A DNA stretch of 64,000 nt from an uncultured Acidobacteriota bacterium (GTDB lineage Bacteria > Acidobacteriota > Thermoanaerobaculia > UBA5066 > Gp7-AA6), in NCBI GenBank assembly GCA_963784935.1, contig CAWATD010000001.1, positions 20,991 to 84,990 on the forward strand, written 5' to 3'. A program made the position numbers and the translations under genes. How positions within the stretch are numbered: position 1 is the stretch's first letter; each line of letters starts with the position of its first letter. Shown one piece after another: positions 6,150-56,488 of this stretch. The notes beneath the pieces are model-generated. The model ran no database searches. It saw only the letters and a list, made by a program, of their open reading frames with translations, and had not been told where the DNA came from.

Positions 6150-9100
6150 CTACGGATTCGACAGCGTGACGCTGTCCAGCCCCGATGTACCGATCAAGGT
6201 GTTGTTGTGACTGGTCAGCGGCAAGCCGACGTAGACGTTGGCGGACATCGTGATCGTGTCGGATCCCACCAGCGTCCAGGTGATCCCGTCCGGCGAGCTG
6301 TACCCGGTGAACGTGTCGGCGTTACGCCCGCTGCGCGTCAGCTTGACCCAGTACGGACCCGCCACCAGAGCGTCCCGCGGTGCCGACACCCGCAGCTCCG
6401 GTGGTGAGCCGGCGCTGAAAGTGCACCCCATTCGAGGGGGTCAGGATCGTCATGGCGAACGTGGAATTGGCCGCCAGCGTCTCGCGAATCATCACGCCGC
6501 TCTTGGCCCACGGATCCGTGTTCTGGATGCTCGCCACGCGCGCGATGATCGTCCCGTCGCCGCTCCATGGCTGGTACACGTAGTGGAACTGATCCGACGT
6601 GCCCCAGATGTCGGTTCCAGAAGCGCTCATCGTGAACGCCCCCGCCGAATAGCTCGCGTTGCCCGCAATACCAGGACCCCCGATGTCCTGATGCACCCAC
6701 GGCGCCGGAAGGCCGCCACCCGGCGCCGGCGTGCGTGTCGGTGTCGCCGTTGGACCGATCGGCGTCGCGGTGCGCGTGGGCGGGACCGTCGGCGTGTTCG
6801 TCGGAGCGATCGGTGTCGCGGTACGCGTCGGCGTGGCGGTCGACGTGTTCGTCGGAGCGATCGGCGTCGCGGTGCGCGTGGGCGTGACCGTCGGCGTCGG
6901 CGTGGCCGTGGCGTCGCGCTCGCCGACGCTGATGCTGTCCAGAGTGCCCGTGCAGAGCAGCGTGTTGTTGTGACTGGTCAGCGGCAAGCCGACGTAGACG
7001 CTGGCGGACATGGTGATCGTGTCGGTTCCCACCAGCGTCCAGGCAATCCCGTCCGGCGAGCTGTACCCGGTAAACACGTTGCCGCTGCGCGTCAGCCTGA
7101 CCCAGTACGGACCTGCCACGAGAGCTCCCGGGGTGCCCACACCCGCAGCTCCGGTGGTGACCCGGCGCTGAAAGTGCACCCCATTCGAAGGGGTCAGTAT
7201 CGTCATGGCGAACGTGGAATTGGCCGCCAGCGTCTCGCGAATCATTACCCCGCTCTTGGCCCACGGATCCGTGTTCTGGATGCTCGCCACCCGCGCGATG
7301 ATCGTCCCGTCGCCGCTCCATGGCTGGTACACGTAGTGGAACTGGTCCGACGTGCCCCAGATGTCGGTTCCAGAAGCGCTCATCGTGAACGCCCCCGCCG
7401 AATAGCTCGCGTTGCCCGCAAAACCAGGACCCCCGACGTCCAGATGCACCCACGGCGCCGGAAGACCCGCCCCCGCCGTCGGCGTGGCTGTCGGCGTCGC
7501 GGTCGGGCCGTTTGAGGTCGGCGTCCTCGTAGGCGTCATCGTCGGCGTCGGCGTCCTGGTGGGAGTCGGCGTCACGGTTGCCGTTCGTGTCGGCGTCGGA
7601 GTCGGGCCCGCCGGGCCGATGGTGACGTTGTCGAACACGGCAGTGCAGAGGACCGTGTTGTTGTGGCTGGTCACGGCCAAACCCACGTAGACGCTGGCGG
7701 ACATGATGATCGTGTCGGATCCCACCAGCGTCCAGGTGACTCCGTCCGGGGAGCTGTACCCGGTAAAAGTGTCGCCGCTGCGCACGAGCTTGACCCAATA
7801 GGGCGCGCTCACGCTCGGGCCCGTCGAGCCGGCGCTCTGATAACCCTTGAGCACACGGCGCTGAAAGCGAACTCCATTGATCGGGGTCAGGATCGTCATG
7901 GCTTGAACGGAGTCGGCTGCCAGGGTGTCGCGCAACATCACGCCGGCCTTGGCCCAGGGATCCGTGTTCTGAATGCTCACGACCCGCGCGATGATCGAGC
8001 CATCCCCACTGAGCGTCTGGTACGCGAAGTTGAACTGATCCGAGGTCGACCAGATGTCGGCTCCCGAAGCCTTGACGGTGAGCGTGCCAGCCTGCGTCAG
8101 GCTGCCCGCCAGCCCGGGGCTGCCGATGTCCCGGTCGGCCCAGGCGGAGGAGGCCGGCGTGTAGGTCGCCGTGTAGGTGGCCGGAGAGGACGTCGCGGTG
8201 ACCGTGTGGTTCTGCGCTCCCCCGTCCGACCAGGAGACCCACTGGTAGCCGCTCTCCGGTGAAGGCGCGTTGACGGAGTTGGCGGAGTTGACGATGACGG
8301 TGCGAACGAAGGGCGTCGTCCCCGCGAAAGTTCCCACCGTCAGGTACAGTCCCGAGGGGCTCGACTGAAACGTCAGGTCCACCGTCTTCGGCTGAATGTT
8401 GACGCTCGTAGTCGCCGAGAGGCCGAGGGAGTCTGTGGCCGTCAGCTGGATCTCGAGGTAGGACGGGTACTCGTGGTCGGGAGCCGAAAACGAGCCGCTC
8501 GCAACTCCCGAGAAAGTCTGGTACGTGTGCAGGTGACAATTCGAGGGGCAGTGGTGGATGAGGACCACCCAATTGAGCGCGCTCGCCGGCAGCACGCCGC
8601 CATCCGGATCGGTCGCCTGGCCCGAGAAGCTGATCGTGTCTCCGACCTTCCAGGTGAAGGAAGACGCGGGCGTCGTGATGGACGGAATCGGAGGCTGGTT
8701 ATCGACGAAGATCTTGATCGGTGCGCTGATCGCAGAGCTGCCGCGCTGGTCGGTGACCTTGAGCCGGGTCGTGTAGGTGCCTTTCGTGGTGTAGACGAAC
8801 GCGGGCTTCTGCAGGGTCGAGTCGTCGAACTGGCCGTCCCCATCGAGATCCCACGCATAGCTCAACGTGTCGCCGGATTGGGCGGGCTTCGATCCGCTCC
8901 CGTCGAAATTCACCGTCAGCGGCGACGGGCCGAACAGGGGTGAGGCCGTCGCGAGGGCATTCAGGCCGTAGACGAAGCGGACGATGTTGCCGCCGTTGAA
9001 GTCGGCGTAGTAGACGTTGCCGTCGGGACCCACATCCAGGAACACGGGGCCCGTCGCCACGCTGGACGCGAACGGGATGACGTTGGCCGGGTTGGGATTG

Positions 9101-10476
9101 CCTCCGGCATCCGGCAGCATCACCCAGACGCAGGCGCGCGAATAGTCCGAGAAGAAGAGCGCGTTCTTGTAGGTCGAGGGATAGTTGCTGCCGCCCGTGT
9201 AGAAGGTGATGCCGGCGACCGAGGAGCTTCCCGTCGGACACCCGTCGGTCGGGAGGACCTGAGCGCGTGGTTGTAGGTCAGCACGGGCAGCGTGACCGTC
9301 TGCGGGCTCTGCGCGTAGAGGGCCTCGCAGATGTTCAGGTTGTCGCCGTCGTAGCTGGGCTGACGCAAGAGGCCTTCGTAACAGGGCCAGCCGAAGTTCG
9401 TGCCGACGGTTGGGTTGGAAAGGTGGTTGATCTCCTCCCAGGTGTTGTAGCCGACGTCGGAGATCCAGAGGTCGTTGGTGCCGGGCTTGATGGTGAACCG
9501 GAAGGGGTTGCGCAGGCCCCACCCCGTGATGCGCTGCGCGTTCACGTCGCCGGACGAGTGGAAGGGATTGTCCGGGGCGCCCGCGCCCGTGGCCGGATCC
9601 AGACGCAGGATCGTGCCGTTCAGGACCCGCGGTTCGCCGGCCGTGCGCAGCACCGACTGGGCGCGCAGGGCCCCGCCCTCGGCTCCCGGAGGAACCTGGT
9701 TGCCGCCCACTGGCACCGGCGGATCTCCGCACGGGTTCTTGGGCGTCGGTGGCGGGCTGCCCTGGGTCCCTCCGAACTGACCGTAGTCGTCGTTGATGAA
9801 GCTCGCGCCATCACCGGCGCTCACATAGAGGTAGCCGTCGGCACCGAAGTTGAGAGAGCCGATTGAGTGGCTCGGGAACTGCTGGCACCAGTCGTTGATC
9901 ACGGAGTGCTCGCTCGCCTTCCAGTCGCTGCCGGTCGCGGTCAGGCGCGACAACCGGCCGCTGATGACGCAGCCGTCCGTATTGGCGCCAGGGGGACTCG
10001 GACACGGGTCGGATGTTCCATCTCCCGGACCCCATTTCGGCGGCGCACCCCCGATGGGCGCGTCGTACGCGTAGAGCACGTAGACGTAGTTGTTGGTCGA
10101 GAAGTTCGGGTCGATCGCGAGTCCCAGAAGGCCCTCGGTCCCAGTTGTTGAAGACCTCTGAGCGCAGGTCCGCGACGACCGTGTAGGTGTTTGTCGTGAT
10201 GTTGGGAAACAGCTTGAGAAGCCCGCTCTTCTCCGCCACCAGCACACGGCCGTCCGGCAGAAACCGCACGACCGTCGGATTGGTCAATCCGGTGAAAACC
10301 ACCGTCTCGGAAAAACCCTGCTGCTTGAAACTGGTGCCGGCCAGCGCTGCCGGCAAGGCGAACGCGAGGGCGAGAAGGGTCGCCCTTCGGGCCAATGGCG
10401 CCAGCACCTCGAGAAGACTGCCAGGCCAGGGTTGTCGCACCGGTTTGACATTCATTGGAGAATTGGAATTCGCCAA
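6150..10476 (-). pseudogene. Giant secreted modular protein B: signal peptide + PQQ-type glucose/sorbosone-dehydrogenase-like propeller + PKD + Ig-like + 3 ConA-like (DUF1349/LamG-like) modules joined by Pro/Thr linkers; 3 frame breaks (about 10138, 9270, 6390)
   Basis: ORFs 9811..10476, 9120..10247, 6322..9732 and 6150..6431 are collinear with paralogue A. Signal peptide: LLALAFALPAALAG. Propeller: FLPDGRVLVAEKSGLL, LLGLAIDPNF, GADGYLYVSAGDG, NDLWISDVG. PKD: LTVNFDGSGS...YAWDLDGDGQFDDS. Module core: SGTDIWGTSDQFHYVYQPWSGDGTIIARVASIQNTDPWAKSGVMIRE...GYSSPDGIAWTLVG. Confidence 0.8.
6153..8150 (-). repeat. Tandem coding repeat: 3 ConA-like modules plus PT linkers (period about 650-710 bp) in gene B
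   Basis: Module starts recur as AWADRDIGSPGLAG, APWVHLDVGGPGFAG and [15 protein letters not shown]. The DNA of the internal modules is near-identical to the modules in gene A. Confidence 0.85.
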
Positions 10477-47126: not shown

Positions 47127-47593
47127 CGCGTCGTCCCTCCGGCCACAGCCCGCGCGACCGCGCGCTGCATTCGCCCATACGTCCCGCAGCGGCAGATGTG
47201 CGCCGACAGGGCGGCCTCGACGTCGGCCTGCCCCGCCGGCTTGCTGCCGCCGACGAGCGCCGCCGCCGTCATGATCATTCCCGGCTGGCAATAGCCGCAC
47301 TGGGCCACGTCCTCCGCGAGCCAGGCCAGCTGACACGGATGCCGGCCCTCCTCGGAAAGCCCCTCGATCGTCGTGACCCTGCGCCCCGCGGCGGCCCGGA
47401 TGGGGACCTGGCAGGACCGCATCGCCTCTCCGTCGACGTGGACCGTGCAGGCGCCGCACGCCCCGGCGCCGCAGCCGTACTTGGTGCCGGTCAGGCCGAG
47501 CGTGTCGCGCAGCACCCAGAGCAGCGGCATGTCGGGGTCGGCCGCCTCGATGGATTGCGTGCGCCCGTTGATCGTGATCGCGAACCTGGCCAT
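47123..47593 (-). CDS. (2Fe-2S)-binding small subunit (IorA/CoxS-like)
   Basis: The ORF is intact at 156 aa. Motifs: [12 protein letters not shown] and [10 protein letters not shown]...ICRCGTY. It overlaps the large subunit start by 4 nt. Confidence 0.9.
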
Positions 47594-47696
47594 CCGCCCT
47601 CCCGCCTTCCTACGGAATCAGGGTACCGCGAGTTTCGGGCGTTCGCGGCGCGCGCGACGGTCACGGGAACCGAGAACCTCTCTCGCCGTTCAACGG

Positions 47697-50370
47697 CTAC
47701 CCCCGCAGCGCCACCATCGGATCCACCGCCGTCGCCCTCCGGGCCGGCACGAAGCACGACACGACCGCGACCGCGCCGAGCACGAACGCCACGACGAAGT
47801 AGGTCGGCGGGTCCGTCGGCGACACCTCGTAGAGCAGGCTTGCCCAGAGCCGCGTCACCACGATCGCGCCCGCCAGGCCGAGGGCGAGCCCCCCGAACAC
47901 GGGTCGCATCCCCTGGCCGAGCACCATCCGCTGCACGCTCGAGGGAAGCGCCCCGAGAGCCATCCGGATGCCGAACTCGCGCCGGCGTTGCCCGACCGAG
48001 AACGCGATGACGCCCGCGATGCCGGTTGCCGTGATCACGAGGGCGAGACCGGCGAACAGCGACGAGCAGGATCGCCGTCAGCCGCGGCGTGTCGAGCGCG
48101 CCGGCGTGCACCTGCTCGAGCGTGCGGAAGCGGTCCACGGGCTGGTCCGGGCCGACGCGCATGCACGGCGGCGCGCATGACCCGCTCCATGCGCGCGGGC
48201 TCGGCGGAGGTCCGCAGGAGGCACGTCGTCGACAGCCACGGGTACTGGTCGAGCGGAAACGAAGACCTGGTCGACCGGAGGATCGGCCGAGGCCGTACTG
48301 GCGCACGTCCCCGACGACGCCGACGATCGTCAACACCGGAGGTTCCGCCGGGCCGCGGCTCCCGAGCCGGATGCGCCGGCCGACCGGGTCCTCCGAGGGC
48401 CAGAGGTGCCGCGCCATCGACTGGTTGATGACGGCGACGGTCGCCGCGCCGGCACGATCGGCGGCCTCGAGGCTCCGGCCCCGCAGGATCGGCACGCCGA
48501 TCGTGCGGAAGTAGTCCGGCGTGACGTGCTGGAAGTCGGCCCGGGGCATCGCGTCGGCCGCGACGGGAGGGCGGCCCTCGATCTGGAAGCGGCCGTTGTT
48601 GGCGCGGCCGCCCTCGTTCAGCGGAATGGTCCCGGAAAGCGCCACGGACAGGACGCCGGGCTCGGCCGCCAGGCGCTCGAGCAGGCGCCGGTGGAAAGTC
48701 CGCTGGTCCTCCTCGGTCTTGTAGCGCGTGAAGTTGAGGTCGAGGCGCGAGGTCAGCACCCGCTCGGTCCGGAACCCGGGATCCACGCGTGGAGAGCTTC
48801 CAGAGCGTGCGCAGCATGAGCCCGGCCCCGGCGAGCAGGACGAAGGAGATCGCGACCTGCGCCACGATGAGGAGATTGCGAGCCCTCAGGCGCCCCGCGC
48901 CCGCCGTCGTGCGCTCCCGGCCTTCCTGGAGCGACAGCGTGAGCGCGCGCCGGGGAGCCAGGGCCGGAATGAGGCCGAGCACGATCCCGACGAGCACCGA
49001 GACCGCGAGCGAAAAGAGCAGCACGGGCACGCTGATCCCGATCTCGGACGCGCGCGGCGTGAAGCGCTCGGCGAAGTGCACCAGCATTCTCTGGCCTGCC
49101 GCCGCAACGACGAGGCCGAGGGCCCCGCCCGCGAGCGCGAGCAGGACGCTCTCGGTGAGCAACTGGCGCGCGAGCCGGCCTCTGCCCGCGCCGAGCGCCG
49201 AGCGCAACGCCAGCTCCTGCTGGCGTCGGGTCAGCCGCGCGAGCATCAGGTTGGCGACGTTGGCGCACGCGAGCAGCAGCACGAGGCCGACCGTGCCGAA
49301 CAGGAGCAGAAACGTCGGCCGGCGCGTTGCGCGTGAGCTCCTCGGACAGCGGCAAGCGGCGCGAGCGCCAGGTGGGACGCCGTCGGATAGCTCTTGGGAT
49401 AGTCGTGGGTCAAGCTGCGCCGCGAGGTCGTCGAGGTCGCGGCCGGCTTCTGGAATGCCGGCGCCCGGCTTCAGGCGGCCGAACGCGCGGAGCATGCCGC
49501 TGTCCCGGTCGGTTTCCATCTGCGGAGTCCGAGCGGAACGGGCAGGCCGACGTCGGCATGTAGACGTCGTTGTCCTGCGGGTAGCCCGGAATCGGCGGAA
49601 GGACGCCGATGACCGTGTGCGGACGGTCGTTCATCTGGAACACGCGCCCGACGACCGCCGGATCGCCGCCGAAGGACGCGCATCCAGTAGTCGTGGGACA
49701 GGACGAGGACGGCCTCGGCGCCGTGCTTGTCTTCGCCCGGCAGGAACGTGCGCCCGAGGATCGGGCGCACGCCGAGCAGGTCGAAGAAGTTCGCCGACAC
49801 GACGCCCGTCTGAACGCGCTCGGGCTCCGGCCGCCCGAGGAGCACGAACCACATCGAGTGGTACTCCGCCACCGCCGCGAGGGTGTGCGTGCGCTCGCGC
49901 AGGTCGGTGATCTCCAGCGGCGAGAATTGGCCGTCCTGGATCCCGGCTCCGGGAGCGTCGACCCGCAGCCGCACGAGCCGGTCGCCGCCGCCGTAGGGCA
50001 GCGACTGGAGGAGCACGCCGTGGACGACCGAGAAGATCGCCGTGTTCGCGCCGATGCCGAGGGCGAGCGTCAGGATCGCGGCGGCGGCGTAACCCGGGTT
50101 CCTGCGCAGCGACCGCAGGCCGTAGCGCACGTCCTGCAGGGTCGTCTCGAGCCACACGGCGCGGCTCTCGTCGCGCGCCTCGTCCTTCGTCTTTGCGACG
50201 CCGCCGAAGCGCACGAGCGCCGCGCGGCGGGCTTCGGCGCGATCCATGCCGCGGCGCACGTTCTCCTCGGTTTCCCTGTCGATGTGGAAGGCGAGCTCCT
50301 CGTCGAGCTCGCGCTCCTTGCGGCCGGAGCCGAAAAGGGACGCGATGCTGCCCGCGATCTTCTTCAGCAT
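47697..50370 (-). pseudogene. ADOP-family duplicated permease 3; 4 or more frame breaks
   Basis: The N-terminus (in ORF 49471..51747) reads MLKKIAGSIASLFG...[37 protein letters not shown]. The first FtsX half reads LACANVANLMLARLTRRQQELALRSALGAGR (48035..49519). The second reads AFSVGQRRREFGIRMALGA...ARRATAVDPMVALRG (47697..48038). Confidence 0.75.
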
Positions 50371-50828: not shown

Positions 50829-52137
50829 GTGAAAAAAGGACCCATCTCCGGCAGCTCTGGCAGTCGTCGCCCTCGGCGCGTCGCTCGCGCCGGCCGCCGA
50901 GCCGCCCGCCAAACCGCCGATCGCCATCCGGGCAGGCCGCCTGCTCGACGTCAAGTCGGGCCGCTACGTGGACCACCCCGTCGTCGTGGTCGCCGGCGAC
51001 CGGATCGAGAGCATCGGCACCGCCGTGCCGGCCGGCGCGACCGTGATCGACCTCGGCGATCGCGTCCTGATGCCCGGCCTCATCGACGCGCACACGCACA
51101 TCCTCCTCCAGGGCGACGCCACCTCGGCCGAGTACGACGAGCAGATCCTCAGGGAGTACCCGGCGCACCGGGTCGTGCGGGCCGTACGGGCCATGCAGAT
51201 CGGCCTCGGCCACGGCTTCACCACGCTTCGCGACCTCGAGACCGAGGGCGCGGGCTACGACGACGTGGCCATCCGGGACGCCGTCAACGAGGGCGTCGTG
51301 CCGGGACCGCGGCTGAAGGTGGTCGGGCCTGCCCTTTCGACGACGGGCTCCTATCCCATCACGCACTTCCGTCCCGACTGGAAGTTCCCGAGCGGCGTCA
51401 TGGTCTGCGACGGCGCCGACGGCTGCCGCAAGGCCGTGCGCGAGCAGCTTTCCTACGGGACGGACTGGGTCAAGGTCTACGCGAACACCGGGGGACTCCG
51501 GCTCACCGCCGACGGCTACGTCGACTCTCCGCCCAACTGGACGAAGGAGGAGATCGAGGCGGTCGTGTCCGAAGCGCACGCCCACGGCGTGAAGGTCGCC
51601 GCGCACGCCCGTTCCGACAGCGGGCTGCGACTGGCGGTGGCCGCGGGAGTCGACTCGATCGAGCACGGCGACTCGATCCGCCCGGAGATGGCGGCCGAGA
51701 TGGCGAAGAAGGGAATCGCCTTCTGCCCGACGCTCACCGTCGTCCACTACGTCTCGGGACCGCGGGCCGCGGCCGGCTGCGCGATCTGCGCCGAGTCCGC
51801 AAAGATCCAGGCCCGCTCGTTCGAGAATTGCCGCAAGGCCGGAGTGAAGATCGTCTTCGGCACGGACGCGGGCGGATTCCCGTGGACCGAGATCAACCAG
51901 GCCGAGGAATTCGGGTACGAGGTCGCCCTCGGCATGACGCCGATCGAGGCGATCCGGACGGCGACGACGAACGCGGCGGAATTGCTCGGCATGTCAGGAC
52001 AGATCGGCACGATCGAGAAGGGCGCGTACGCGGATCTCGTCGCCGTCCCGGGCGACCCCCTGGCGAACGTCGCGGCGCTATCGAAGATCGACTGGGTGAT
52101 GAAGGGCGGCCAGGTCGTCGGCGGCGGGAGCCGCTGA
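50829..52137 (+). CDS. Secreted amidohydrolase-family metallohydrolase; one frame break in an A-run at 50832-50837
   Basis: With one A removed, the start reads GTG-KKDPSPAALAVVALGASLAPAAEP (signal peptide). ORF 50968..52137 carries LMPGLIDAHTHI, VKVAAHARS, IEHG and IVFGTDAG, the metal-ligand pattern of amidohydrolases. Confidence 0.8.
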
Positions 52138-52144
52138 CCGGCCG

Positions 52145-52762
52145 ATGGAAGGGCAAACCATGCTGCGTGCAGGACTCACCGGGGGTCTGGCGTCGGGAAA
52201 ATCCACGGTCGCGCACCTGCTGGCCGAACGCGGGGCGGCGATTTTCGACTCGGACGCCCTCGTGCGCGAGCTCTACAATCCCGGGGGTGCGGCGGTCCAC
52301 GCGGCGCGCGACCTCTTCGGCGATGCGGCCCTCGACGGAGCGGGGGCGGTCGACCGGGCCCGCGTCGCCGAGATCGTCTTCCACGATCCCGCCAAGCGCC
52401 GGGCCCTCGAGGCGCGCATCCACCCGATCGTCCGGGAAGAGCGCGAGCGGCACTTCGCGCAGGCCGAGTGGGCCGGCGCGAGGGTCGCCGTCTGCGAGGC
52501 GTCGCTGCTCTTCGAGGCCGGCACGGAGTCGGAGTACGACCGCGTGCTGCTCGTCGTGGCGCCGGTCGAGGAGCGCATCCGGCGCTGGGTCGCCAAGGGC
52601 GGCAGCGAGGAGGACGCGCGGCGGCGCGTCGCCGCCCAGATTTCGCCCGAGGAGGCGGCCAGGCGGGCCCACGAGATCATCGTCAACAACGGCACGCCCG
52701 AAGACCTGCAGCGCCAGGTGGACGAGGTCTGGGGGCGCTGGCTGGCGCTGGCGGGAAACTAG
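52145..52762 (+). CDS. coaE: Dephospho-CoA kinase
   Basis: It reads MLRAGLTGGLASGKSTVAHLL (P-loop)...FDSDALVRELY...RIHPIVRE. The true start may be the internal Met at 52160. Confidence 0.85.
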   Translation: MEGQTMLRAGLTGGLASGKSTVAHLLAERGAAIFDSDALVRELYNPGGAAVHAARDLFGDAALDGAGAVDRARVAEIVFHDPAKRRALEARIHPIVREERERHFAQAEWAGARVAVCEASLLFEAGTESEYDRVLLVVAPVEERIRRWVAKGGSEEDARRRVAAQISPEEAARRAHEIIVNNGTPEDLQRQVDEVWGRWLALAGN

Positions 52763-52790: not shown

Positions 52791-54002
52791 ATGCCTGCCA
52801 AAAAGCTCAAGAGCCCCGCTCCCCTGGCCGTCCGGGACGGCGACGCGCTGCTTCTGGTCGGGACGATGAAAGGCCTCTTTCTGCTGCGCTCGGATTCGAA
52901 GCGCCGCCGCTGGCAGATGTCGGGCCCGCATTTCCCCGGCTCCTCGGTCTACGGAGCCGCCCTCGACACGCGGGCCGGGCGGCATCGCCTGTGGGCCGCC
53001 CCGTCGAGCATGCACTGGGGCGCGGAGCTTTCCTGGAGCGACGACTTCGGCAAGAGCTGGCAGCGGCCCGAGACTCCCCTCGTCCGCTTTCCCGAGGCCT
53101 CGGGCGCGGCGTTGAAGAACATCTGGCAGATCGCCCCGGGCCGCGCCGACGAGCCCGACACGCTCTACTGCGGCGTCGAGCCGTCGGCGCTCTTCCAGTC
53201 GCGCGACGCGGGAAAGACCTGGAGCCTGAACGACGGGCTCTGGAACCACCCCCACCGCGCCAAGTGGATGCCGGGCGGCGGCGGCCTCTGCCTCCACACG
53301 GTGCTCGTGGATCCGACGCGGTCGGGCCGCCTGACCGTTGCGAGCTCGACCGGGGGCGTCTACCGCTCCGACGACGGGGGTCGGTCCTGGAGCCCCAGGA
53401 ACCAGGGCGTGCGCGCCGAGTTCATGCCGGACAAGCACCCCGAGTTCGGCCAGTGCGTGCACAAGATCGTGCACCACCCGGCGCGGCCCGGCCGCCTCTT
53501 CCTCCAGAATCACTGGGGCCTCTACCGCTCCGACGATGGCGGCGACTCCTGGAAGGACGTGGCCAACGGCGTGCCGTCGGACTTCGGCTTCTGCCTGGGA
53601 ATCCACCCCCGGGATCCCGATACCGCCTTCATCGTGCCGCTGCACTCGGACGGCTTCCGCTGCACGCCCGACGGCAAGCTGCGCGTCTACCGGACCCGCG
53701 ATGCCGGCGCATCCTGGCAGGCGATGACGCGCGGCCTTCCCCAGAAGGACGCGCTCGAGACGGTCGTGCGCGACGGGATGGCCGTGGACGGCTTCGATCC
53801 GGCCGGCGTCTACTTCGGCACGCGCAGCGGCAAGCTCTACGGCTCGCGCGACGAGGGGCGCACGTGGGAGCTCCTGCGCGAGGGGCTGCCCCCGATCGTC
53901 TGCGTCAAGGCCGGCCTGGCGGAAAACGTCCGCGCGCGAAAGAAGGCTCCGCGCCCGAACGTCGCGCGCCGCGCCGGGAATCGGCTGCGCCGGGCGGCCT
54001 GA
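52791..54002 (+). CDS. BNR/Asp-box repeat beta-propeller protein (sialidase/xyloglucanase-like fold, function unknown)
   Basis: The ORF is intact at 403 aa with six Asp-box-like motifs: SDDFGKSWQ, SRDAGKTWS, SDDGGRSWS, SDDGGDSWK, TRDAGASWQ, SRDEGRTWE. Confidence 0.75.
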   Translation: MPAKKLKSPAPLAVRDGDALLLVGTMKGLFLLRSDSKRRRWQMSGPHFPGSSVYGAALDTRAGRHRLWAAPSSMHWGAELSWSDDFGKSWQRPETPLVRFPEASGAALKNIWQIAPGRADEPDTLYCGVEPSALFQSRDAGKTWSLNDGLWNHPHRAKWMPGGGGLCLHTVLVDPTRSGRLTVASSTGGVYRSDDGGRSWSPRNQGVRAEFMPDKHPEFGQCVHKIVHHPARPGRLFLQNHWGLYRSDDGGDSWKDVANGVPSDFGFCLGIHPRDPDTAFIVPLHSDGFRCTPDGKLRVYRTRDAGASWQAMTRGLPQKDALETVVRDGMAVDGFDPAGVYFGTRSGKLYGSRDEGRTWELLREGLPPIVCVKAGLAENVRARKKAPRPNVARRAGNRLRRAA

Positions 54003-54284
54003 TGGCCGTGCGATTCCTGATCCCGGGCCCGCTGCAGCCCTTTTCGGGCGGCCGCCCGGCGGTCGCGCTCGACGCCTCCCCCGCGACCGTGGCCGAAGCC
54101 CTCGCCGCGCTCGGGGCCCTCTACCCCGGGCTCTCCGATCGGATCCTGACCGAGCAGGGCGACGTGCGTCCCCACGTCAACGTCTTCGTGGCGGAGACCA
54201 ACATCCGCGACGCCGGCGGCCTCGCGGGCCCGGGTGCCCGAGGGCTGCGAGATCGCGATCCTGCCTGCCGTCAGCGGGGGCTGA
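54002..54284 (+). CDS. MoaD/ThiS-like ubiquitin-fold protein ending in Gly-Gly; one frame break near 54225-54235
   Basis: It begins MAVRFLIPGPLQPFSGGRPAVALDASPATVAEALAALGALYPGLSDRILTEQGDVRPHVNVFV. After the shift it reads RVPEGCEIAILPAVSGG-stop (my own translation). The ATG overlaps the upstream stop (TGATG). Confidence 0.65.
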
Positions 54285-54853
54285 TGCGGTTGACGGCGCC
54301 GACGCCGCCCGCGTGGACGGCGGCCGTGCTCGCGGACCTCGACGCGTTCCTGCTCGACCATGCGGCGAACGAGCGAAAAGCCTCGTCCTCGGCCATGGCA
54401 CTCGTCGCGCACTACCCCGACCGGGAGGAGCTCGTGGAACGGTGCATCGCGCTCGCGATCGAAGAGCTGCAGCACTTCGGATCCGTGCAGGCGCACATCC
54501 GCCAGCGAGGCCTCACCCTCGGCCCGGACACGCGCAGCGCCTACCTGCAACGCCTCCGCAAGCAGTTCCGGGAGGGCAGCGACGCCTACTTCCTCGACCG
54601 CCTCCTGACCGCCGGCATCGTCGAGGCGCGGGGCTGCGAGCGCTTCGGCCTCGTCGCCGCCGCACTGCCGCCGGGCCCGCTCAAGGAGTTCTACCGCGAG
54701 CTCGCCCGCTCCGAGGTGCGGCACCAGGAGCTCTATATCGGGCTCGCGCGGCTGTATTTTGCGGACGACGCGGTCGCGGCAAGGCTGGAGGAGCTCCTCG
54801 ACGTGGAAGCAAAGGTGATGGCGGAGCTGCCGATTCGGGCTTCTCTCTATTGA
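54284..54853 (+). CDS. miaE: tRNA-(ms2io6A37)-hydroxylase-like di-iron protein (MiaE family)
   Basis: It reads LDAFLLDHAANERKASSSAMALV...LAIEELQHFGSV...GIVEARGCERFGLVA...ELARSEVRHQELY. This is the duplicated E...ExxH ferritin-like pattern characteristic of MiaE. Its ATG overlaps the MoaD-like stop. Confidence 0.8.
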   Translation: MRLTAPTPPAWTAAVLADLDAFLLDHAANERKASSSAMALVAHYPDREELVERCIALAIEELQHFGSVQAHIRQRGLTLGPDTRSAYLQRLRKQFREGSDAYFLDRLLTAGIVEARGCERFGLVAAALPPGPLKEFYRELARSEVRHQELYIGLARLYFADDAVAARLEELLDVEAKVMAELPIRASLY

Positions 54854-54880
54854 AGCGGGCCCGAGGTTAAGCTCCCATCC

Positions 54881-56264
54881 GTGATTCCGACGAAACCCGT
54901 CACCCAGTACCTCTCCCGCCACGCGGAGCCCGAGTCCGCGCTCGCCGAGCGGCTGGAGGGCTCCTTCGGCCACGTCCTCGTGATCCCGGCCTACGGCGAG
55001 GGACGAAGCCTCTTCGACACGCTCGGCTCCGCGCCGAAGGGGCCGCGGGGAGACACGCTGATCGTCGTCGTCTTCAACGCACGCGCCGACTCTCCCGCGC
55101 GCGTCCACGAGGTCAACCGGGCCTCGAGCGCCCGCCTGCGCGAGGCCGCGACGTCCTCGCGCGAGCTCGGCCAGGCGCCGCTCGTCTCGGCGCTCGCCTA
55201 CCCCAATGGAACGATCGTCGTGATCGACCGCGCGCTGCCCGGGACACTACCTGCCCGAGGGCCAGGGCGTGGGGCTCGCGCGCAAGATCGGCAACGACTT
55301 CGCCCTGCAGCTGCACGCGGCCGGGCGGGTCGGCTCCCCCTGGATTCACAACACGGACGCCGACACGCTGCTCGCCAACGACTACTTCGACCAGACCGAG
55401 CCGGTCCCGGCCGAAGGCAACGCCGCGGCGCTCTACTTCTTCGAACACCGATTCAGCGACGAGGACGAGAATCTCGCGCTCGCGGCGCGGCTCTACGAGA
55501 TCTCGCTGCGCTACTACGTGCTCGGCCTCGCGTGGGCCGGCTCGCCCTACGCCTACCAGGCCATGGGAAGCTGCATCGCCATCCGCCCCGAGGCCTACGC
55601 CGCGGTGCGGGGCTTTCCGCGCAAGAACGCCGCCGAGGACTTCTACGTCCTCGACAAGCTCGCCAAGGCGGGCTCGATCGCGCGGCTGGCCGGAACGCCC
55701 CTTCTGCTCGAGGGCCGCATCTCCGACCGCGTCCCTTTCGGCACGGGCAAGGCGCTCTCGCAGCTGCTCGGAAAGAAGGGAGCACTCGCGGGTTTCCGGC
55801 TCTACCACCCGGCGGTCTTCGCGCACCTCGGCGCCTGGCTGCGCGCCCTGGCAGCGGTCGCCCGGTCCGGCGGACGGATCGAGACCGCGATCGAGGAGCT
55901 GCCGCGCGGCAACCCGTTCTTCAAGGCGGATGTTCTTGTCGAGTCGCTCGAAAAGATGGGGGCTTTTACGGCCATGCGCGAGGCGGTTGCGCGCTCCGGC
56001 GACGCGGCGACGATGCTGCGCCACTTCCACACCTGGTTCGATGCGTTCCGGACCCTGAAGCTCATCCGGGCGCTGCAAACGGGAGGCCTGCCCGCTCTCC
56101 CGTGGCGCGAGGCCCTCGCCGAGGCCCCGTTCACGGGGCTTTCCGCCTCGACGCAGGACGATCCCGAGCCCCTGCGCCGCGCGCTCGCGGCCGAAGAACG
56201 CAAGCTCGCAGAGAGTCCGGCGGGCGTGCCCGCCGCACTCGAGGCCGAAGAGCCCGAAGGCTAA
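54881..56264 (+). CDS. GT-A-fold (family-2-like) glycosyltransferase-like protein of unknown function; one frame break near 55235-55245
   Basis: Motifs: HVLVIPAYGEG, LIVVVFNARADS, GVGLARKIGNDFAL, NTDADTLL (DxD), KNAAEDFYVLDKL. A ~200-aa helical C-terminal extension follows. Confidence 0.5.
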
Positions 56265-56488
56265 TTCATCGAGCAGGAGCCCGGGCCTCGCGGGTCGCCG
56301 CACGAGCCGCAGCCTCCCGCTGGCTCCGACGCGCTCGACGACGTCCCGCCGGAGCCGACCGCGAAGACCGAGAGGAGCTTCTCGAGCTTCGCGCCCTGGC
56401 ACGCCGGGCAGCGCGGCTTCGCGTCGCCGAGGACGAACTCCTCGAATCGCTTTGCGCAGTCGCGGCACCGGTATTCGAAGAGCGGCAT
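56261..56488 (-). CDS. FmdB-family (CxxC_CxxC_SSSS) zinc-ribbon putative regulatory protein
   Basis: It reads MPLFEYRCRDCAKRFEEFVLGDAKPRCPACQGAKLEKLLS...GGCGSCG. I take the start at the internal Met of ORF 56261..56611. Confidence 0.8.
   Translation of the reverse strand: MPLFEYRCRDCAKRFEEFVLGDAKPRCPACQGAKLEKLLSVFAVGSGGTSSSASEPAGGCGSCGDPRGPGSCSMN

Follow-up and report, generated by a model that had tools for sequence, protein, structure and literature searches.

In this study we asked which genes of a compact bacterial locus belong together. Is the locus one pathway, or does it hold a smaller unit with other genes around it? It lies in a 64,000-nt stretch of DNA (contig CAWATD010000001.1; hereafter the window, with a G+C content of about 70%) from an uncultured Acidobacteriota bacterium, which is assigned to Thermoanaerobaculia by its homologs in public records and whose metagenome-assembled genome (MAG) comprises 3.52 Mb in 6 contigs at a completeness of 89.8%. 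An earlier interpretation made from the letters alone (the sequence-only reading) had described three genes joined by overlapping stop and start codons, namely those for an Asp-box beta-propeller, a small MoaD/ThiS-like protein and a MiaE-family di-iron protein, followed by genes for a GT-A-fold protein and a zinc ribbon, and it had taken the tight coupling as a sign of a pathway shared by them. Our analysis favors a narrower answer. That is, we consider it fairly probable that the functional unit is a two-gene module consisting of a propeller of the 3B7F family and a CysO/SAMP1-like ubiquitin-like protein (Ubl), and that the other genes are its neighbours.

Conservation of the propeller-Ubl pair

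The TGATG overlaps that had been read at 54000-54004 (propeller/Ubl) and 54282-54286 (Ubl/MiaE) are present in the window. We scanned bacterial genomes at the species level (one genome per species), obtained more than 599 propeller matches, and took the best 80 loci, which came from Acidobacteriota, Gemmatimonadota, Eisenbacteria, Rokubacteria, Planctomycetota, Actinomycetota and Dormibacterota. With 7 loci added from two sister families, the sample amounted to 87 loci, of which 82 were informative, that is, had enough downstream sequence. The Ubl was sought downstream of each propeller with a hidden Markov model of the Ubl.

A Ubl was found on the same strand downstream of the propeller in 67 of the 82 informative loci. 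For the scan loci the count was 60 of 75, and the loci with a Ubl were from Acidobacteriota, Gemmatimonadota, Eisenbacteria, Planctomycetota, Actinomycetota and Dormibacterota. Among the bacteria with the pair, Kutzneria viridogrisea DSM 43850 (L099) and Halosaccharopolyspora lacisalsi DSM 45975 (L120) are in culture. The start of the Ubl gene lay between -7 and +160 nt from the propeller stop in 60 of the 67 loci, and the two genes overlapped in 25. In all seven loci of the two sister families, the gene after the propeller ortholog (about 42% identity) encodes a Ubl that ends in GG and belongs to a divergent subtype (...EPFLIVGAIAGG), and none of the window's other genes stood beside the two. 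Within the genus, the order amidohydrolase-CoaE-propeller-Ubl-MiaE-GT was kept in 29 of 29 informative loci; this is simple synteny. Outside the genus, the propeller-Ubl pair alone persisted. The sequence-only reading was thus right to treat the propeller and the GG-ended Ubl as a coupled, conserved and uncharacterised unit. The pair is a widespread Ubl system that has apparently never been studied.

Pfam tallies of 231 flanking open reading frames (ORFs) gave 123 and 109 different families, and the only recurrent ones were ThiF and Rhodanese. No acceptor-type enzyme (CysM, MoaE, ThiG or a PP-loop thiolase) recurred beside the pair in these tallies. A system of the mec-cysO-cysM type was also considered and was rejected, because neither PALP nor JAB was recurrent in the flanking ORFs and the only Prok-JAB protein of the genome was RadC.

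The Ubl, its activating enzyme and the propeller

The Ubl gene is frame-broken as assembled, and we analyzed its product in the corrected frame, which is described in the following section. The corrected Ubl matched PF02597 over residues 6-93 (E=1e-10; 42.3 bits against a cut-off of 22.5). It also reached the SAMP1 model NF041918, which was built on archaeal proteins, but marginally (61.3 bits against a cut-off of 60). The best solved relative was CysO of M. tuberculosis (3dwg_C, E=4e-12, full length), and the second best was 4n6e_B, the Amycolatopsis CysO in the BexX complex (E=1.5e-9). From the full-length homology to the CysO (3dwg_C) and SAMP1 structures, a beta-grasp fold is predicted. 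The genome also has a separate MoaD-like gene (contig C5; product ending ...LPPVAGG) and a ThiS gene (contig C2; product ending ...LVGGG), and therefore the propeller-linked Ubl is a third carrier.

Several Ubl orthologs do not stop at Gly-Gly. From 1 to 30 further residues were noted in loci L055, L062, L063, L064, L067, L069, L073-L075, L082, L104, L106 and L117, and about 75 in L087. The extended ends include SGGAL, SGGIRT, SGGC and SGGGIDD. In two loci the Ubl frame continues into the next gene; the product of that gene is an ABC ATPase (L065) or an LMW-phosphatase/ArsC-like protein (L080). The extended orthologs would need C-terminal processing.

The sequence-only reading had also stated, with reason, that a protein of this kind needs an E1-like activator and that none was present, and it had proposed a search of the genome for such an enzyme and for a JAMM protease. 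The statement holds within the window but not for the genome, which has two ThiF-family genes, one of MoeZ type on contig C5 and a second, ThiF-like one on contig C3. The gene at C5:370125-371318 encodes a full-length MoeB/MoeZ-type E1 with a C-terminal rhodanese domain, and a rhodanese domain on an E1 is a hallmark of thiocarboxylate formation. This E1 matched the model of the SAMP-activating enzyme UbaA at 328 bits, which is under the cut-off of that model. A MoeZ-type E1 gene of the same E1-rhodanese type directly adjoins the pair in six loci from two phyla, on the upstream side in L034, L037, L038 and L040 and on the downstream side in L077 and L078 (Gemmatimonadaceae). As for the protease, no Mec-like JAMM peptidase was found in the genome at the sensitivity used, and the sole Prok-JAB match was RadC (C1:137645-137917). 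This result fits a Ubl that already ends at Gly-Gly.

In L034, which belongs to a sister-family genome, a repeat of about 283 nt occurs in three copies (7280-7562, 7555-7837 and 9026-9308), two of which share 94% identity. It has 40-nt terminal inverted repeats and flanks the MoeZ-type E1 gene upstream of the pair. It looks like a MITE-type element.

The other member of the pair is the propeller. The six Asp-boxes (SxDxGxxW) counted earlier were borne out by our reading of the intact ORF, and a degenerate seventh box was recognized at the N-terminal side. The protein matched PF02012 at 44.6 bits and BNR_2 at 23.9 bits, the latter under the cut-off of 31.4. Against the Protein Data Bank (PDB), it matched 3b7f_A with E=3e-77 and is homologous to it over residues 13-374. 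This structural-genomics entry is YP_299179.1 of Cupriavidus/Ralstonia eutropha, named 'glycosyl hydrolase, BNR repeat', and it is a seven-bladed Asp-box propeller whose function is listed as 'not known' (PMC2716378). No signal peptide was seen in our protein by inspection. It is predicted to be a cytoplasmic, seven-bladed propeller of the 3B7F family. Public records name such propellers 'exo-alpha-sialidase' or 'PSII assembly factor-like', with PF25852 listed on them. These names derive from the repeat alone, and the propeller should carry neither.

The residues H169, E218, C222, H224, Q239, H241, R327 and D328 were conserved across the 87 orthologs apart from one exception each at some positions, and C222, which is adjacent to H224, was invariant in 87 of 87, in a sample that is biased toward such residues since its loci were retrieved with motifs containing some of them. 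The propeller orthologs share 50-67% identity across phyla.

We propose that the two proteins work as follows. The Ubl, which has a free C-terminal Gly-Gly and is translationally coupled to the propeller, would most likely be adenylated, and probably thiocarboxylated, by the MoeZ-type E1-rhodanese encoded on contig C5. Its GG tail would then be presented to the propeller, in which the conserved His/Glu/Cys/His/Gln/His residues may serve as the acceptor site, the propeller being either an enzyme or a target. What forms in the end may be a protein conjugate, a persulfide or a small molecule that contains sulfur. The genes for CoaE, MiaE, the GT-A-like protein and the zinc ribbon would be neighbours that this genus has acquired.

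Sulfur-carrier proteins and Ubls are known with just a handful of partner enzyme types, and the partners already known for sulfur carriers are MoaE, ThiG, CysM/MetY, BexX and TtuA-type thiolases. We tentatively suggest, as an idea that falls short of an even chance, that the 3B7F-type propeller is a new partner class for E1-activated sulfur-carrier proteins, possibly a metalloenzyme, in which a hub of His169, Glu218, Cys222, His224, Gln239 and His241 receives the Gly-Gly-COSH terminus and which, in soil bacteria from six or more phyla, makes or repairs a sulfur metabolite, a cofactor or a protein persulfide. If it is true that the propeller is locked to its own GG-ended carrier, a new partner type is added to the list. 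In soil lineages that are abundant, the pair might also lead to a sulfur metabolite or a route of protein tagging that is as yet undescribed.

A comparison with known systems shows where the pair resembles them and where it departs from them. The CysO-CysM-Mec system of M. tuberculosis with MoeZ (3DWG) is alike in the Ubl's best match, in the GG terminus and in the MoeZ-type E1-rhodanese, but the fixed partner here is the propeller, and no CysM-type PLP gene or Mec/JAMM gene stood beside the pair in the 87 loci. In the CysO-BexX system of 2-thiosugar synthesis (Amycolatopsis, 4N6E), the gene of the carrier likewise adjoins that of the acceptor enzyme, and the E1 gene lies in another place. The acceptor there, however, is a ThiG-like TIM barrel in a biosynthetic cluster, whereas here it would be an Asp-box propeller, and there is no cluster. 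Natural-product pathways that borrow a sulfur-carrier protein together with a shared MoeZ follow the same logic as the propeller-Ubl pair. MoaD-MoaE (molybdopterin synthase) and ThiS-ThiG are alike in PF02597 and in having adjacent or overlapping genes for carrier and partner; they differ in that neither MoaE nor ThiG adjoins the pair here and the genome has its MoaD-like and ThiS genes elsewhere. The archaeal SAMP1/UbaA and eukaryotic Urm1/Uba4 systems are alike in the SAMP1 score of the Ubl and in an E1 rhodanese domain as in Uba4. In contrast to them, the present system is bacterial, and a dedicated propeller partner is missing in SAMP and Urm1. By analogy with these systems, a dual role of the Ubl as carrier and modifier is conceivable.

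The last likeness leads to an alternative, which we regard as doubtful. According to it, the Ubl modifies proteins in the manner of SAMP or Urm1 instead of carrying sulfur for a metabolite, and the propeller is either the target dedicated to it or an adaptor of the E3-like kind, for example with persulfidation or conjugation at Cys222. The score just at the SAMP1 cut-off, the match of the genome's own E1 to the UbaA model, although below its cut-off, the invariant C222 next to H224, and the lack of a recurrent acceptor-type enzyme beside the pair are all in keeping with such a role. However, the E1s that adjoin the pair have a rhodanese domain, RadC as the sole JAB-domain protein leaves no deconjugating enzyme, and the identity of 50-67% among propellers of different phyla fits the active site of an enzyme better than a passive target.

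We return to the two-gene module of propeller and carrier, against which several points weigh. An E1 gene adjoins the pair in just 6 of the 87 loci, and the solved homolog 3B7F keeps the His residues but has no Cys at the positions equivalent to C167 and C222. No adjacent Ubl was found in 14 Streptomyces/Kitasatospora loci and one Pyrinomonadaceae locus, each with 1 to 8 kb of downstream sequence, which means that the propeller can exist without an adjacent Ubl. We found no description of the pair (a MoaD/ubiquitin-like protein with a BNR propeller, 3B7F) in the literature. Moreover, the frameshift in the Ubl gene could be a real inactivating mutation in this organism, and a co-transcribed Ubl and MiaE may reflect a functional link specific to the genus. 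The last two points are taken up below.

Some minor observations on the propeller can be added here. Its C-terminus (53911-54002) is a basic tail of about 30 residues rich in Arg, Lys and Ala (...VRARKKAPRPNVARRAGNRLRRAA). A much longer tail of the KAKKAR type occurs in the homolog P0116, and the sister-family orthologs have none. The basic tail could bind nucleic acid. We looked among long homologs for a natural fusion of Ubl and propeller and rejected both candidates, of which P0112 is a mis-assembled duplication and P0116 has only its long basic tail. The propellers of the Streptomyces/Kitasatospora loci that lack a Ubl (L102, L103, L105, L107, L108, L110-L112, L114-L116, L118, L119 and L121) show about 51% identity and keep C222, H224 and H241; Oxidored_FMN and other lineage-specific genes stand beside them.

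Frame breaks in the Ubl and GT-like genes

The start codon of the Ubl gene (ATG at 54002) and its GG-TGA end (54282-54284) are out of frame with each other, the interval being 283 nt. The assembled sequence from 54002 to 54853 can be read as a single open frame of 283 residues without a stop, which consists of Ubl residues 1-76, 17 off-frame residues and MiaE. The cause is one extra G in the run at 54232-54234 (CCGGGTG). Its removal restores ...GLAGPVPEGCEIAILPAVSGG-stop, that is, a 93-residue Ubl ending ...AILPAVSGG. In a DNA alignment, five of five same-genus relatives lacked the extra G and had the intact 93-residue protein with ...AILPAVSGG before the stop; the insertion is unique to the window. 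Since these five relatives read through to the same end, the corrected Ubl is real for the lineage. All intact relatives have the C-terminal Gly-Gly before the stop, as does the window's gene once its frame is corrected; in the assembled frame it is absent. The terminus ...ILPAVSGG given in the sequence-only reading therefore stands for the corrected gene and for the five relatives but not for the gene as assembled. The uncorrected gene went undetected in a whole-genome PF02597 search.

Similar breaks are seen elsewhere. Compared with an intact ortholog, the GT-like gene has one additional nucleotide in CCCGGG (55238-55243), which splits it into two ORF pieces. A gene for an ADOP permease (47491-49519) is split across at least three frames and contains several insertions. 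The MAGs of L005 and L072, which belong to the genus or to close relatives, have different frameshifts in the same genes. The few-contig MAGs of the same genus have a completeness of 57-75%.

We think that the breaks in the Ubl and GT-like genes are most likely homopolymer errors of a long-read assembly. This is the likelier origin because both are single-base insertions in C/G runs, because the ADOP permease gene is split as well, because other MAGs are frameshifted differently, and because few-contig genomes of the genus show the completeness values just given. We also considered programmed frameshifting in the Ubl gene and rejected it, since the extra base is conserved in no relative.

If instead the extra G is real, the module is dead in this organism, and the Ubl gene is a pseudogene or a fusion of Ubl residues 1-76 with MiaE is made. 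The stop-free frame through both genes and the absence of the insertion from relatives speak for this possibility, but we judge it improbable. The break is a +1 insertion in a G run, a second +1 insertion lies in the CCCGGG of the next gene but one, and more occur in the ADOP permease. L005 and L072, which are also MAGs, carry other frameshifts in the same genes, and a completeness of 89.8% at just 6 contigs is typical of indel-rich long-read assemblies. A systematic indel pattern of this kind will produce false fusions and truncations among the gene calls from this assembly, including a false Ubl-MiaE fusion.

MiaE and the other neighbouring genes

The genes of the locus are listed in Table 1. 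The identification of the third gene as a member of the MiaE family was confirmed. Its product aligned over the full length with PDB entries 8fhb, 6zmb and 2itb (about 1e-27), and its di-iron motifs EELQH, EARGCERF and SEVRH align with those of 8fhb and 6zmb (EELxH, EARxCERF and SExRH being conserved). It resembles MiaE of P. putida (6ZMB/2ITB) in the full-length alignment, in the di-iron motifs and in the presence of MiaB in the genome, and it is of the short, P. putida-like form of about 190-200 residues. The NCBIfam equivalog NF047790 for enterobacterial MiaE (251 positions) matched only residues 47-180, at 98 bits against a cut-off of 320. The gene is single-copy in this genome and in almost every searched genome that has it. 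MiaB was found at C3:335809-337107 (TIGR01574, 440.6 bits against a cut-off of 355), which means that the normal substrate of MiaE should exist. With its di-iron motifs intact and MiaB present, the protein is most likely the organism's ordinary ms2i6A-37 tRNA hydroxylase, encoded in a single copy.

Table 1. Genes at and beside the propeller-Ubl pair (positions in the window).
Gene product	Position	Strand	Evidence and status
Amidohydrolase	50968-52137	+	upstream neighbour, precedes CoaE; outside the module
CoaE, dephospho-CoA kinase	52145-52762	+	PF01121 E=3.5e-44; upstream neighbour, outside the module
Asp-box (BNR) beta-propeller, 403 aa	52791-54002	+	core gene 1; intact ORF; BNR and Sortilin-Vps10 Pfam matches
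ThiS/MoaD-family Ubl, CysO/SAMP1-like, 93 aa once corrected	54002-54284	+	core gene 2; frame-broken as assembled
MiaE-family di-iron tRNA hydroxylase (predicted activity), 189 aa	54284-54853	+	PF06175 141 bits (cut-off 27); lineage-specific neighbour
GT-A-fold (GT2-like) protein with C-terminal helical domain, about 457 aa when intact	54881-56264	+	frame-broken; lineage-specific neighbour
FmdB-type CxxC zinc-ribbon protein, 75 aa	56261-56488	-	PF09723 48.5 bits, TIGR02605 48.7 bits; neighbour

The sequence-only reading had proposed a gene-neighbourhood comparison across phyla. The comparison upheld the link between propeller and Ubl, but a MiaE gene stood after the Ubl gene in no loci other than those of the genus and of three close MAGs (L042, L043 and L072). 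No MiaE gene occurred within 8 kb in the other approximately 60 Ubl-bearing loci, and in L088 the Ubl is followed directly by the GT-like gene with no MiaE between them. Among 61 relatives, the presence of MiaE and that of the propeller were uncoupled, MiaE being found in the genus and in most of one family (f2). In another family of the same order (f3), all seven genomes had propeller and Ubl and none had MiaE. Most f2 genomes had MiaE without a propeller ortholog. Where f2 genomes had both, they were 1.6 Mb (G047) or 116 kb (G049) apart, and none of the window's other genes was near MiaE at seven f2 loci.

Within the genus the spacing between Ubl and MiaE is 0-20 nt, which indicates co-transcription and not shared chemistry. 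The gaps between amidohydrolase and CoaE (7 nt) and between CoaE and the propeller (28 nt) are packed as tightly as Ubl and MiaE, and tight spacing in this genome is therefore no evidence of shared function. The synteny of CoaE with the propeller is limited to the genus and its close relatives.

The proposal that a nucleoside or glycan is modified in a single pathway by the propeller, the Ubl and the MiaE-like hydroxylase, perhaps together with the GT-A protein, and with the Ubl as sulfur donor or as a regulatory subunit like TmoB, can appeal to the abutting or overlapping (TGATG) genes, to the synteny in all informative genomes of the genus, and to TmoB, the beta-grasp subunit on the di-iron hydroxylase of toluene monooxygenase (PMC1779556), but it is very improbable and is largely refuted by the phyletic independence described above, namely the genus-limited adjacency of MiaE, the f3 genomes with the pair alone, the f2 genomes with MiaE mostly alone or far from the pair, L088 and the approximately 60 loci without MiaE nearby, besides the single-copy MiaE with all its di-iron motifs and its full-length alignment to the P. 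putida tRNA hydroxylase structures. The tight coupling thus did not turn out to mark a pathway shared with MiaE, the GT-A-like protein and the zinc ribbon. For annotation, a MiaE gene beside the pair should not count as part of the propeller-Ubl system.

The GT-like gene starts with GTG, 27 nt past the MiaE stop. Its earlier assignment to the GT-A fold agrees with our results, although the gene itself is frame-broken. No Pfam match to a GT2 family reached the gathering score, the best being PF13632 with 18.4 bits and PF13641 with 14 bits against a cut-off of 27, and no PDB sequence was matched when the family was searched as a profile. An AlphaFold2 (AF2) model of the L042 ortholog, made with a 30-homolog alignment, had a pLDDT of 87.7. 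When it was compared with the PDB by Foldseek, 46 of 46 matches at E<=1e-3 were GT-A-type transferases, including hyaluronan synthase, TarS/TarP and mannosylglycerate synthase. The TM-scores were just 0.3-0.5, owing to the extra helical domain. D165-A166-D167, the DAD motif read earlier, was invariant in the 30 homologs. The GT-A assignment is thus supported by the modeled fold and not by family membership.

The gene for the FmdB-type zinc ribbon is convergent to the GT-like gene and overlaps its stop by 4 nt, so that the two genes abut as had been described, and it is syntenic in L041 and L042. As for the GT-like protein, its family (homologs P0123-P0242) has at least 2450 proteins, all named 'hypothetical' and with no Pfam domain on record, and the members listed are from Thermoanaerobaculia and Acidobacteriota.

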